This document shows positions 29,067 to 54,298 of a stretch of 64,000 nucleotides of DNA, piece after piece. This DNA comes from a virus. Taxonomy: Duplodnaviria > Caudoviricetes. The stretch is from IMG/VR virus record IMGVR_UViG_3300021431_004525; one strand, given 5' to 3'. The position numbers and the translations under genes were made by a program. How positions within the stretch are numbered: the stretch's first letter is position 1; each line of letters starts with the position of its first letter. Under the pieces are notes generated by a model. The model worked only from the letters and a program-made list of their open reading frames with translations, was not told the DNA's origin and searched no databases.

Positions 29067-29816
29067 ATGAATAAGAGACTTATAAGACTAACAGAATCAG
29101 ACCTTCATAGGATTGTAAAAGAATGTGTAAAACGTCTTATTAATGAAGATAAAGAATATGTAAGTGTTACTGATTTCAATTATGATGGTAAAGAGTTATA
29201 TGATGTAGGCGATGGTGATTCATTTTGTTATCTCCCTTGTGACATATATGGTACGCCGAAACTATATTATGCAGATTGTCACTTTTCGTGCGCACTACAA
29301 TCACTTGAAGACATAATCTATTCTTTTTATAAGGGTAATATAGAGAGTTTAATAGATGAAGACGATATACATAGCATAGCAGAAGAATTATGGCTTAACT
29401 GCATAAGTGAGCCTGGAAGGGTATTTTATAAAAAGTATATCGTAGTTGGCTTTGATGGACACATACCATCTTGTGAATATGTTAAAGGTGTGATTGAATA
29501 TTTGGGCGGTAATTCAAGCAATTATTGTGTAGTATATAATGAAGAAGATTCAGTAAAAGAAATACCTTGTAATTTTTTTCTTGCTCAAGGGATAAATGGG
29601 AAAGATAAACCAACTATTATGGAAGTTCCAAGAGAACTCAAGATGATTTATGACAAGATGCACACAAAAAGGGATGCCGTTGATAGAAAATTTCCTATGA
29701 ATATGACAAGGGCTGAATATTATTGGCTTACAAGGCAAGAAAACAAAAAAAGTTATGATAAAGTAATAATAGAAGTTATCAATCAATACTTAAAACAGAA
29801 CTTGGTATTAAACTAA
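29067..29816 (+). CDS. leader-bearing putative internal virion protein
   Basis: MNKRLIRLTESDLHRIVKECVKRLINE leader. Confidence 0.7.
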   Translation: MNKRLIRLTESDLHRIVKECVKRLINEDKEYVSVTDFNYDGKELYDVGDGDSFCYLPCDIYGTPKLYYADCHFSCALQSLEDIIYSFYKGNIESLIDEDDIHSIAEELWLNCISEPGRVFYKKYIVVGFDGHIPSCEYVKGVIEYLGGNSSNYCVVYNEEDSVKEIPCNFFLAQGINGKDKPTIMEVPRELKMIYDKMHTKRDAVDRKFPMNMTRAEYYWLTRQENKKSYDKVIIEVINQYLKQNLVLN

Positions 29817-29846
29817 ATGAGCAACCTTGATTGGCTGCTCATTTTT
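29817..29846. terminator. bidirectional terminator
   Basis: ATGAGCAACC-ttgatt-GGCTGCTCAT-TTTT between convergent genes. Confidence 0.7.
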
Positions 29847-29851
29847 GTATA

Positions 29852-30541
29852 TTATTGATATCTCATATAATCTGCTAATAATTCTCTACCTCTTTCAGTT
29901 TCAACATATGCAGCACCGTTTTCATCGAATTCAATTTCCATCCAGTCAGTTGGTTCTCCGCCATAGAATTTAAAACGTGCTGAATCGCCAGACGGATGAA
30001 TTTGCACCTCATGTCCTCCTGAATTAGTGACAGTTCTATATCCTGTTGGTTTAAATTCATCTGATTCTTTCAATTGTTTATTAGTGCTTTCCGCCAACAC
30101 TTCTGTTATACATTCTTTAATAAGATTATTAAGTTGGCTTTCGGTCATATTGAATTTTTGTTTTTTCGATTCCGTATATTTCTGTTTTAAGTAATTATCG
30201 TATCTTTGTCCTGTTTGTCTTGGTGTGCCTTTTGTCATTTGTGCTATATTTGCTACGTCTTTATCGTTTGACATTGCATCCATACCAAGTTGTCCTTTTA
30301 AATCATCTGCGTTAATGTTGCTATCAAGATATGAGCCTACATTGGCATCTTGCTGTTGCTGTGCCAATCTATTTTTATTATTGTCGTTAAATTCTTTCCA
30401 TGAGGCATCTATCTGCTGTTGTTTGGTCATAGGTGTCTGTGGCTGCATATCATATCCATTGAAACCACTTTCTTTAAGTGCTTTGGTTATTGCTTCTTTG
30501 ACAATATTAACAAATTGTTTTTGTTTTATTTTCTGTGCCAT
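29852..30541 (-). CDS. leader-bearing putative internal virion protein
   Basis: NIVKEAITKALKES and internal MTESQLNNLIKECITEVLAE. Confidence 0.7.
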   Translation of the reverse strand: MAQKIKQKQFVNIVKEAITKALKESGFNGYDMQPQTPMTKQQQIDASWKEFNDNNKNRLAQQQQDANVGSYLDSNINADDLKGQLGMDAMSNDKDVANIAQMTKGTPRQTGQRYDNYLKQKYTESKKQKFNMTESQLNNLIKECITEVLAESTNKQLKESDEFKPTGYRTVTNSGGHEVQIHPSGDSARFKFYGGEPTDWMEIEFDENGAAYVETERGRELLADYMRYQ

Positions 30542-30602
30542 TTATATATGTCGATACATATGTTTTTATTTTAGGTAATTATATATTATTTGACCCGACT
30601 TG

Positions 30603-53402: not shown

Positions 53403-53476
53403 ACTTGTTTATATGGTCAAAAAATAGTATCTTTGCATTAAATGTATTGCAAAGATATTTATATTATATGTGTGAT

Positions 53477-53854
53477 ATGAAAAAAAATATAGTGATAAAC
53501 GAGGATATTGAGAGGGAAATTATAGGTGAAATCCTTACGGAAGGTTTCTCTCCTGATAGGGAAAAAGTACTTCTTGTTAAAGACTATCTTGACAAGAATT
53601 TTGAGCCTGTTAAAATGGATGATATCGACGCAAATGGGTATCCAGTAAAAGACAAGATGGTAAATATGTTAAGCAGTGGGCAACCAATAAAAACCATGTC
53701 ACTCAGAGAATTTTTACTATTGCTTGACGATAGATTCCATGATATGATGACTGATGATAGCGATAGAAAGAAATTTCTTAAACAAATAATTAAGGAGTGG
53801 TATACAGGAAAGTTGGCAAAGAATGGACTTTTGTCCGTCAATTTCATTAAATAG
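53477..53854 (+). CDS. leader-bearing hypothetical protein
   Basis: MKKNIVINEDIEREIIGEILTE; TATTTAT upstream. Confidence 0.7.
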   Translation: MKKNIVINEDIEREIIGEILTEGFSPDREKVLLVKDYLDKNFEPVKMDDIDANGYPVKDKMVNMLSSGQPIKTMSLREFLLLLDDRFHDMMTDDSDRKKFLKQIIKEWYTGKLAKNGLLSVNFIK

Positions 53855-53962
53855 GTATATGAAATTCGCCAACTCATTTAAATAAAAACGGGAACTATAT
53901 ATGTGTTGACTCCAAAGTAATATTTATTTAAAAAATAACTTGAATAATACGTATAAAACGAT

Positions 53963-54298
53963 ATGAAGAGATTAGTAAAATTAACGGAAGGAGACCTGCA
54001 TAGGATTGTAAAAGAATCGGTAAAAAGGATATTGAGAGAGGGTTTGAATGACTACGACTATTATTTTAGTGTCCCAGATTATGATTATGACCAAAATGAA
54101 CCGTGGGAAGACACATTTGGTGTGAAAGAGACCATAAACGGATTGGAAATATATGACTACTCGAATGAACTCATATGTGTACTTAGAGGTAAACGGCTAA
54201 GAGATTACAAGACCGGACCTGACCAAGCAGGTGCGGATATGTCAAAGATTAATGATGACAAGTTGATTGCTGATATGAGGAAAGCACGTGGTTATTGA
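53963..54298 (+). CDS. leader fused to paralogue of early protein 2840-3064
   Basis: MKRLVKLTEGDLHRIVKESVKRILRE + ETINGL domain. Confidence 0.75.
   Translation: MKRLVKLTEGDLHRIVKESVKRILREGLNDYDYYFSVPDYDYDQNEPWEDTFGVKETINGLEIYDYSNELICVLRGKRLRDYKTGPDQAGADMSKINDDKLIADMRKARGY

Follow-up and report, generated by a model that had tools for sequence, protein, structure and literature searches.

The window, i.e., the whole 64,000-nucleotide stretch of phage DNA analysed here, contains a series of genes whose products begin with a short helical leader or carry one internally. Copies were searched with a regular expression and three HMMs in the six-frame translation. An earlier note had reported near-identical leaders at 29067, 38278 (internal) and 53963; all three were recovered, together with a fourth canonical copy at 30860 on the minus strand, with domain E-values of about 1e-12 to 1e-16. 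The features are presented in Table 1.

Table 1. Leader-bearing genes, candidate genes and the mobile cassette in the window. ORFs are named in the text by their lower coordinate; an empty cell means that no value applies or was given.
Coordinates	Strand	Feature	Leader, helix or repeats	TATTTAT
29067-29816	+	Leader-cargo gene, 249 aa	Leader 29067-29147; HMM iE 1e-14 to 6e-16	29027, 40 nt upstream
29852-30541	-	Two-module protein, 229 aa	N-terminal helix 30470-30517 (iE 0.0047) and internal module 30089-30151 (iE 0.017), half-helix HMM	
30603-30860	-	Leader protein, 85 aa	Leader 30783-30860; HMM iE 3e-12	
30912-32915	-	Late polyprotein candidate, 667 aa	Internal ESK...LSE module near 32430-32471	32953
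33289-35055	+	588-aa protein	Weak short-type leader candidate; short-class HMM iE 1.9, not significant	
35052-35579	-	175-aa ORF	N-terminus ends I-N-E; no leader HMM match	
35576-36673	-	Putative ART-like-fold protein, 365 aa	Diverged 30-residue leader 36584-36673, iE 0.0078	36714
37429-38775	+	Fusion ORF, 448 aa	Internal canonical leader 38278-38358 (iE 7e-12), then 138-aa cargo	37400
44226-44561		ORF directly 3' of ORF 44574	Leader match not significant	
44574-45770	-	Kinase-like candidate, 398 aa	18-residue N-terminal helix ending I-N-E (45717-45770)	45798
53477-53854	+	Late ORF, 125 aa	Helix ending L-T-E; leader HMM not significant	53456
53890-54428	+	Cassette, 539 bp	27-nt inverted repeats 53890-53916 and 54402-54428; holds late motif and leader gene 53963	
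53963-54298	+	Leader gene, 111 aa, inside the cassette	Leader 53963-54040	53921
62412-63998	+	First part of a multi-domain protein (706 aa)	N-terminus ends I-N-E at residue 9	62371

The variant leaders that had also been proposed fared unevenly. ORF 30603 proved canonical, and ORF 35576 and two modules of ORF 29852 were upheld; a seed HMM returned iE 2.7e-15 for ORF 29852, but that seed included the ORF's own copy. ORF 30912 is borderline: one internal ESK...LSE module reached iE 0.049 and a second module 0.84. The others (44574, the N-terminus of 37429, 33289, 35052, 44226 and 53477) are only suggestive, as the leader HMM alone is not significant for any of them (iE 0.37-1.8 for ORF 44574 and 0.46 for the weak N-terminal helix of ORF 37429), and with a short-class HMM made from the ART-like family 33289, 44226 and the N-terminus of 30912 stayed non-significant. 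When a half-helix HMM made from database proteins only was applied, the best ten window matches all fell within ORFs listed by the earlier note.

The true start of ORF 35576 is probably 36673, which makes its leader N-terminal, and the start of ORF 44574 was set at 45770 on the basis of its late motif. In the fusion ORF 37429, the codons directly 5' of 38278 look like an in-frame reading of the promoter/UTR that is untranslated in 29067. When the N-terminal part of this ORF was compared with that of a two-part host protein, no similarity was found. The protein that starts at 62412 is complete in L002 (10001-12121), a contig of a related strain.

Proteins carried by the leader

Among the cargo labels suggested earlier, that of an ADP-ribosyltransferase (ART) has weak structural backing. 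The AF2 model of ORF 35576 has a pLDDT of 92.4, with helix 13-28 at lower confidence and the domain starting after Glu30; the predicted scissile bond is in coil, with the leader helix before it and the first domain strand after it. Comparison of residues 57-255 with known folds gave top matches that are all ADP-ribosyltransferases, but weak (Foldseek best E 9e-3; VIA Z up to 6.9), and the Atlas comparison gave leads only; an ART-like fold is thereby weakly suggested. This cargo recalls Alt of T4. Glu30 is invariant in 68 homologs, and the family has leaders of 8 to 65 residues, with Leu/Ile two residues ahead of the Glu (P3) in 86 of 97. Homologs of the cargo also occur fused to PF18760.

The remaining labels stood less well. 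ORF 44574 matches phrog_4301 at 6e-16, and kinase-like is a lead only. The phosphoribosyltransferase reading of ORF 33289 corresponds to a Pribosyltran match of 11.8 bits (E 0.15, not significant), with a possible PRPP-binding loop. The zinc ribbon assignment is weak, and no DUF4259 was found in ORF 35052 by Pfam at E<=1. For the 62412 protein, ART-PolyVal scores 19.9 bits, below the cut-off, and NTP_transf_2 scores 24 bits, above it. The product of gene 29067 belongs to no Pfam or PHROG family.

Form, boundary and spread of the leader

The leader has the consensus M-(K/R/N)2-4-(I/V)-(R/K)-L-T-E-x-x-L-x-x-(I/V)-(I/V)-x-E-S-V-x-x-x-L-x-E, i.e., a short basic start followed by an N-capped amphipathic helix, for a total of 25-27 residues. 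In 348 modules, the terminal Glu is kept in 95-97% and Leu/Ile at P3 in about 90-95%, and conservation is lost abruptly beyond the Glu. The leader thus ends in L/I-x-E, the same as the cleavage motif of T4 gp21.

The similarity between leaders had been said to extend to the DNA level, which is not the case within the leader itself: where residues are the same, codon identity amounts to 378, compared with 345 predicted from codon usage, with synonymous sites randomised. These values, being near expectation, indicate selection on the peptide, and they rule out a DNA/RNA-level element or recent gene conversion as the source of the likeness. Only the promoter and 5' UTR upstream of the leader are conserved as DNA, even in the host chromosome described below.

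No Pfam or PHROG family covers the leader, and a faint match to a RelB-like antitoxin (16.7 bits, below the cut-off) was dismissed. Related loci were sought by a degenerate DNA pattern. A leader HMM, which had been suggested as a check, was run and detected, in addition to the four canonical window copies, between 8 and 20 per contig in 11 related phage contigs (184-413 kb; 8 complete). In metagenomes, the leader profile matches 9,162 protein clusters, among which multi-module proteins are common and internal copies are as frequent as N-terminal ones. In comparison with cultured phages, a tblastn search of 50,697 phage records yielded no credible leader match at E<=10, T4 capsid targeting sequences included, and revealed no sequence resemblance to cultured phages of the T4-like kind; megablast with 29000-39000 as query gave no match among cultured phages. 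A full-text literature search, for leader strings and for capsid targeting in gut and rumen jumbo phages, returned no prior description. The leader is a real conserved tag on many unrelated late proteins of an uncultured giant phage that infects rumen Bacteroidales.

Head genes, late motif and mobile cassette

The head module was examined in IMG/VR relatives; the protease gene lies just outside the window. The strain represented by contigs L002 and L003 is about 95% identical to the window over 51120-64000. In this strain and in every large relative tested, Peptidase_S77 and a Gp23-type capsid protein are found in the T4 gene order, which is portal, small genes, protease, acidic scaffold and Gp23 capsid protein. 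The T4 gp21-type protease (Peptidase_S77) is present in 11 of 11 large leader-bearing contigs, with a score of 74 bits against a cut-off of 27 in contig L005. The protease of L003 (14596-15321) aligns with the T4 gp21 structure 5JBL at 57.5 bits. At the two catalytic positions, which are Ala in the crystallised chain (native 85 and 140 after a 19-residue tag offset), it carries His and Ser.

In nine of the 11 genomes, the protease gene has a leader gene no more than about 2.2 kb away; in a complete 295-kb relative (G009), the ortholog of ORF 30603 is about 1 kb from the protease gene. Conserved families of small leader proteins, some of them acidic, adjoin the protease and scaffold genes. The N-terminal domain of the scaffold is found, for instance, at L005 15396-15605. 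The N-terminal helix of the scaffold has I-S-E at its end, with Ala and a run of acidic residues next, and bears a weak likeness to the leader helix (hhalign P 2.7e-4, probability 41%). These observations, together with the several modules present in many proteins, would suit a leader helix that acts as an assembly module of the prohead-core or scaffold type, with tagged proteins that are structural, size-determining or DNA-condensing, a tag that is not removable and cargo that is not injected. We regard this as unlikely, given that the cargo is extremely diverse, with enzyme-like folds among the 9,162 clusters, that the ART-like family keeps L/I-x-E despite its variable leader length, and that genes on mobile cassettes are unlikely core structural parts.

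Of 34 head genes in the relatives, 26 have the motif TATTTAT at 23-47 nt upstream, and the motif also precedes the window genes 29067, 53963, 36673, 32915, 37429, 45770, 53477 and 62412 (given by their start positions). This late-promoter-like motif is common to leader genes and head genes. ORFs 44574, 37429, 53477 and 35052, as well as the weakly supported 30912, have a late motif of their own or lie directly 3' of a motif-bearing gene, in an operon-like manner; ORF 35052 overlaps the stop of gene 35576, hence it is probably co-transcribed.

A different late-protein signal was also considered, namely an element recognised by the phage's ClpX- or ClpC-like unfoldases, or a helix that serves oligomerisation or localisation and is unrelated to the capsid. 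The window does encode ClpX-like (61135-62361) and ClpB/C-like (50982-53402) ATPases, and a basic amphipathic N-terminus could act as a degron. However, internal copies are not rarer than N-terminal ones, leader genes cluster with head genes and have the promoter motif in common with them, and an invariant terminal Glu with Leu/Ile two residues before it and an abrupt end of conservation is unexpected for a degron. Such a signal is therefore less likely still.

The inverted repeats of the cassette around gene 53963 are 89% complementary, with 0 matches expected by chance. Strain contig L002 is without exactly 53889-54428, while both flanks are about 95% identical. Its terminal inverted repeats, and its exact-ended presence in one strain and absence from the other, make it a candidate MITE-like non-autonomous cassette, for which no transposase was identified; its flanks are A-rich, with a possible 6-nt target-site duplication that is not exact. 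The repeat also occurs 3' of a leader gene in a distant relative (L020), and among 274 loci there are only two cassettes with these repeats, one besides the window's. The portability of the leader follows from the presence of the cassette in one strain and its absence in the other, and from the single cargo family with leaders of such different lengths.

Leader genes are also found in bacteria. Most clearly, the chromosome of the isolate Segatella bryantii DSM 11371 has a solitary leader gene behind a phage late promoter and UTR (L226 6932-7195), and the same is seen in several Prevotellaceae and Bacteroidaceae MAGs; no S77 protease gene was found in the bacterial genomes with such genes. It is conceivable, yet quite improbable, that this is a "Trojan horse" defence, in which the host gene would stay silent until phage late transcription and its product would be addressed into progeny capsids, where it would sabotage either these or the infection that follows. 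More modestly, the promoter-UTR-leader-cargo cassette may be a mobile element of a new kind, moving back and forth between phage and host.

A further reading, which we consider very unlikely, is that what is conserved is primarily a selfish mobile cassette made up of the repeat, the late promoter, the UTR and the first codons, with the peptide kept because expression or mobility requires the cassette's 5' end, and not for a protein function: the strain polymorphism, the same repeat in a distant relative and the DNA-level conservation of promoter and UTR, even in a host chromosome, speak for it, but the codon identities point to selection on the peptide, internal modules without a promoter keep the motif, and only two of the 274 loci hold such cassettes.

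Proposed capsid targeting and comparison with known systems

The reading we favour, and consider fairly probable, is that the leader is a capsid-targeting, cleavable propeptide of a T4-related jumbo phage. We infer that leader proteins bind the core, are cleaved and packaged, and are ejected. Tagged proteins would be made late in infection, alongside head proteins, and the basic leader helix would dock them on the acidic scaffolding core of the prohead. The gp21-type serine protease would then cut after the terminal Glu of L/I-x-E, freeing the cargo inside the head, and the freed cargo, which would include an ART-like enzyme and a kinase-like protein besides many uncharacterised proteins, would be ejected with the DNA. 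Internal leader copies would be joints of polyproteins, cut apart likewise.

A capsid-targeting and release system had been proposed in the earlier note. The protease, the L/I-x-E boundary, the late motif, the clustering with the protease gene and the portability all fit it. About half of the variants listed in the note and most cargo labels are without statistical support. Some points count against the capsid-tag reading. L/I-x-E is short, and the Glu could belong to the helix or to the cargo, the domain of the ART-like family beginning E-V-R-Y-I-D; a cut at an internal module would leave the upstream domain with a C-terminal leader. To these may be added the weak scaffold likeness, the solitary leader genes in bacteria without S77, the A/S/G-x-E preference of the phiKZ/SPN3US homologs, and the fact that there is no similarity to T4-like cultured phages.

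In T4, gp21 cuts after L/I-x-E, and the capsid targeting sequences (CTS) are N-terminal propeptides of 10-19 residues (PMC9026906), in agreement with the cleavage rule and the cleaved CTS cited by the earlier note. The CTS is found on the internal proteins IPI, IPII, IPIII and Alt and is removed by gp21 (PMC9026906; Mullaney and Black 1996 as cited there). The idea of a capsid-targeting tag, protein delivery included, is already established for T4 (PMC9026906). Like the CTS, the leader is an N-terminal propeptide, as predicted here, on unrelated proteins and ends in L/I-x-E, and the set of cargoes varies and can be exchanged. As in T4, a protease of the gp21 type, an acidic scaffold resembling gp22 and a Gp23 capsid protein are encoded, in the same gene order, and one cargo is putatively ART-like (cf. 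Alt). Unlike the CTS, the leader has 25-27 residues and is a strongly conserved amphipathic helix, has 8-20 or more copies per genome and more than 9,000 protein clusters, includes internal copies in polyproteins, travels with a promoter/UTR cassette, and has no sequence similarity to T4-like cultured phages.

In phiKZ, 201phi2-1 and SPN3US, propeptides of ejection or inner-body proteins are cut after Glu, at several sites per protein, by gp175/gp245, a diverged gp21 homolog; the phiKZ and SPN3US homologs prefer A/S/G-x-E, and the targeting role of these propeptides is inferred (PMC5694885, PMC10052503). The likeness lies in a giant phage with many head-internal proteins (predicted here) and a gp21-type protease. 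Those propeptides, however, are mostly longer than 100 residues, family-specific and cut at A/S/G-x-E, whereas here a single short portable L/I-x-E module recurs across proteins that are unrelated.

Polyvalent proteins of phages and conjugative elements, reportedly described by Iyer et al. in 2017, are said to unite ART-PolyVal, nucleotidyltransferase and further enzyme domains in one chain and to pass into the recipient cell together with the DNA. Multi-domain enzyme combinations are a shared trait, as in the fusion of 35576 cargo homologs to PF18760, although the joints here read as modules of helix plus Glu tied to a T4-type head protease, and Pfam scores within the window fall below or close to the cut-offs. 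Encapsulin cargo-loading peptides bring unrelated cargo into an HK97-fold shell. The leader is similarly short, portable and present on unrelated cargo, its capsid address being predicted here, but encapsulin peptides are C-terminal, bind the shell itself and are uncleaved.

The leader is probably a new form of the T4 capsid targeting sequence. If so, the T4 principle would reach to Bacteroidota phages, in a version that is longer, modular and highly conserved, with cargo gained via mobile promoter-leader-cargo cassettes and in-frame fusions. Given the chromosomal copy, Segatella bryantii is a candidate host for isolating such a phage, and the tag may offer a handle for loading foreign proteins into gut Bacteroidales phages, as was achieved with T4. 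Should the tag act in the manner proposed here, a single short profile would reveal the packaged, and probably injected, protein repertoire of gut and rumen jumbo phages that are uncultured and very abundant; this repertoire would comprise more than 9,000 protein clusters, nearly all without a known function, and would be a likely source of host-takeover and anti-defence enzymes.

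Leader copies and leader-bearing cargoes

Regular-expression and HMM searches of the window yielded four canonical leaders (see table), which include the three that the earlier note had singled out. Among the variants it had listed, ORF 35576 (iE 0.0078, broader HMM), ORF 29852 (iE 0.017 for an internal module with broader HMMs, and 0.0047 for the N-terminus with a helix-half HMM) and, at a borderline value, a single module inside ORF 30912 (iE 0.049, helix-half HMM) were recovered, whereas ORF 44574, the N-terminus of ORF 37429, and ORFs 33289, 35052, 44226 and 53477 gave no significant HMM match on their own. 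The helix-half HMM was trained solely on database proteins, and its ten best window matches all lie within listed ORFs.

The 111-aa product of gene 53963 matches some 28 metagenome proteins in its first 25 residues only (72-92% identity); in these the leader is always at the extreme N-terminus and the remainder is unrelated. When 23 leaders of the window and its relatives are aligned, position 27 is a near-invariant Glu, beyond which conservation is absent. Searched against 1.84 billion representatives, the leader profile matched 9,162 clusters at E ≤ 1e-3, and 832 when the threshold was E ≤ 1e-10; proteins among the best matches carry 2-4 modules each. In the top-scoring set of 348 modules, about as many are N-terminal as internal; the last residue is Glu in 95-97%, and Leu or Ile stands two residues earlier in ~90-95%. 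No family covering the leader was found in Pfam or PHROG, nor any description of it by full-text literature search; leaders of this type form a large family that is so far undescribed. A cargo domain starting L-D-W-K-T-Y directly after the leader Glu recurs in many unrelated contigs, and may be one of the commonest payloads.

Identical leader residues share the same codon in 378 cases, versus 345 expected from codon usage. This indicates that synonymous sites are randomised and that the peptide is the object of selection, so the near-identity at the DNA level reported in the earlier note is not borne out within the leader. ORF 35576 (minus strand, 365 aa) has at least 159 cargo homologs. Its Glu30 is invariant in 68 of them, while the leaders before it vary in length between the canonical 25 residues and 8-12, or lie internally, following an ART-PolyVal domain; of 97 leaders in this cargo family, 86 have Leu or Ile at P3. 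In the AF2 model (pLDDT 92.4), residues 13-28 form a helix of lower confidence, which a short coil joins to the folded domain; the predicted scissile bond would lie in the coil. The structural neighbours of the model are all ADP-ribosyltransferases, although the matches are weak.

Coordinates of features (window positions unless a locus is named; (-), minus strand)
Feature	Position	Remark
Canonical leaders	29067, 30860(-), 38278, 53963	38278 internal
TATTTAT motif	29027, 32953, 36714, 37400, 45798, 53456, 53921, 56396, 62371	
Starts credibly preceded by motif	29067, 53963, 32915(-), 37429, 53477, 36673(-), 45770(-), 62412, 56425, 28656, 45853	
GmrSD-type (type IV restriction-like) protein	24440-26182	
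NadD-resembling ORF	28011-28622	
C-terminus of 29067 protein	29745-29816	similar to L226 6251-6320(-)
Leader gene of cassette	53963-54298	
Stretch missing from strain L002	53889-54428	L002 2764-2769
TnpB-containing stretch	54931-56393	ORF 55193-56389
S. bryantii leader gene	L226 6932-7195	
Solitary leader-tagged host-genome loci	L226, L167, L168, L174, L236	
L-D-W-K-T-Y cargo domain	L267 2028-2546, L035 2553-2654, P0040, P0057, L205, L257	

Head genes and prohead protease of relatives

The window is AT-rich (G+C ~33%) and encodes ClpB/C- and ClpX-like ATPases, a UvrD-like helicase, ThyX, a Dam-like methylase, GmrSD, DUF932 and a dNMP kinase. One ORF resembles, by eye, NadD-type nicotinate/nicotinamide mononucleotide adenylyltransferases, which fits both the NAD+ synthesis genes reported from gut jumbo phages (PMC11662467) and the ART-like cargo of this phage.

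Megablast of 29000-39000 returned no cultured relative, and IMG/VR contigs continue the window. The strain L002/L003 (contig of 42,953 bp), ~95% identical across 51120-64000, encodes just downstream a large terminase, a portal, a conserved 480-aa protein, small ORFs, a prohead protease and a scaffold. In the relative L005, the portal (86% identical) is followed by 469-aa, 129-aa and 147-aa proteins, Peptidase_S77 (74 bits against a cut-off of 27), a 495-aa acidic scaffold and a Gp23-type capsid protein (237 bits), which is the T4 order 20-67-68-21-22-23 (PMC9026906). The protease of the near-identical strain matches T4 gp21 (5JBL) with 57.5 bits, and in L003 has His and Ser at positions that are Ala in the crystallised chain.

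Peptidase_S77 exceeds its cut-off in all eleven large IMG/VR contigs that carry leaders (184-413 kb; CheckV rates eight as complete). Each of these contigs has 8-20 leader matches at E ≤ 1e-3 (that of L031 has ~14, and 18 at E ≤ 1). Nine of them have a leader gene no more than ~2.2 kb away from the protease gene; chance would give this in ~15% of genomes (~13 copies per 350 kb), although the genomes share synteny and so are not independent of one another. Conserved leader-protein families are found next to the protease gene, as is an ortholog of the window's 85-aa protein.

T4 gp21 cleaves after L/I-x-E, and T4 targeting propeptides comprise 10-19 residues (PMC9026906). The relatives' capsid protein has three conserved L/I-x-E sites in its N-terminal region (residues 42-44, 49-51 and 58-60), and in the alignment the mature N-terminus of T4 falls close to residue 45. 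At the N-terminus of their scaffold is a helical domain that closes with I-S-E, after which come Ala and a long acidic tract; a resemblance between the last helix of this domain and the leader helix is suggestive only (hhalign P 2.7e-4, probability 41%). Given this context, the best-supported reading, which we consider somewhat favoured, is that the leader is a putative T4-like capsid-targeting and release tag. A rival explanation is a core-assembly helix that is not cleaved.

Late-promoter-like motif

Of 34 head genes from divergent relatives, 26 have TATTTAT at 23-47 nt before the start codon, with the consensus (A/C)TATTTAT(A/T) followed by an A/T-rich tract (L003-L031). The window holds 40 copies, below the 62 ± 8 predicted from composition, and 16 of these precede an ATG opening an ORF of at least 40 aa. 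ORFs 35052 and 44226 are directly downstream of motif-bearing genes. We infer that the motif is a late promoter. Based on this motif and on homolog alignments, ORFs 35576 and 44574 were given internal starts, 36673 and 45770 (minus strand), which bring their helices to the N-terminus; the longest-ORF starts (36709, and the TTG at 45815) are probably wrong. As an alternative to capsid targeting, the leader could be another late-protein signal, e.g., a Clp recognition tag.

Mobility and host-genome copies

Gene 53963 is carried on a 539-bp unit with 27-nt inverted repeats at its ends; the precise absence of this unit from L002 constitutes a presence/absence polymorphism. The unit is inserted in A-rich sequence, where there may be an inexact 6-nt duplication. 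The inverted repeat recurs in a distant relative, 3' of a leader gene adjoining the protease gene. A selfish cassette is a further rival to the capsid-targeting reading. Beside the cassette, a stretch with an IS200/IS605-type TnpB-like ORF, replaced in L002 by ~640 nt of other sequence, looks like a second recent insertion. With the 38278 copy, the promoter and UTR known from upstream of 29067 persist in degenerate form and in frame, so ORF 37429 looks like a read-through fusion, which may be one route to polyproteins.

A pattern scan of genomes of 185,579 species returned 107 matches, 47 of them true leaders; the phage late-promoter motif precedes 18 of these 47, including the copy in Segatella bryantii DSM 11371. 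In this isolate, the leader gene lies amid ordinary genes on a 3.5-Mb chromosome contig, and its upstream DNA is closely similar to the promoter and UTR of 29067 (~88%, by eye). The adjoining 124-aa ORF and the 29067 protein end in a similar helix, I-I-x-E-x-I-x-Q-Y-L-K-x-N-L, which may be a second shared module. The leader gene of locus L167 adjoins an IS1595-like transposase and a type I restriction-modification methylase.

Many uncultured Flavobacteriaceae assemblies (L164, L170, L182, L191 and others) also match this degenerate leader pattern, none being among the 47 confirmed leaders. Five host genomes with 1-3 leader copies each have no S77 gene. Nearly all of the true leaders come from ruminant assemblies assigned to Prevotellaceae, Bacteroidaceae or Paludibacteraceae, a number of which are mis-binned phage contigs, and the host-genome copies suggest the host range of the phages.
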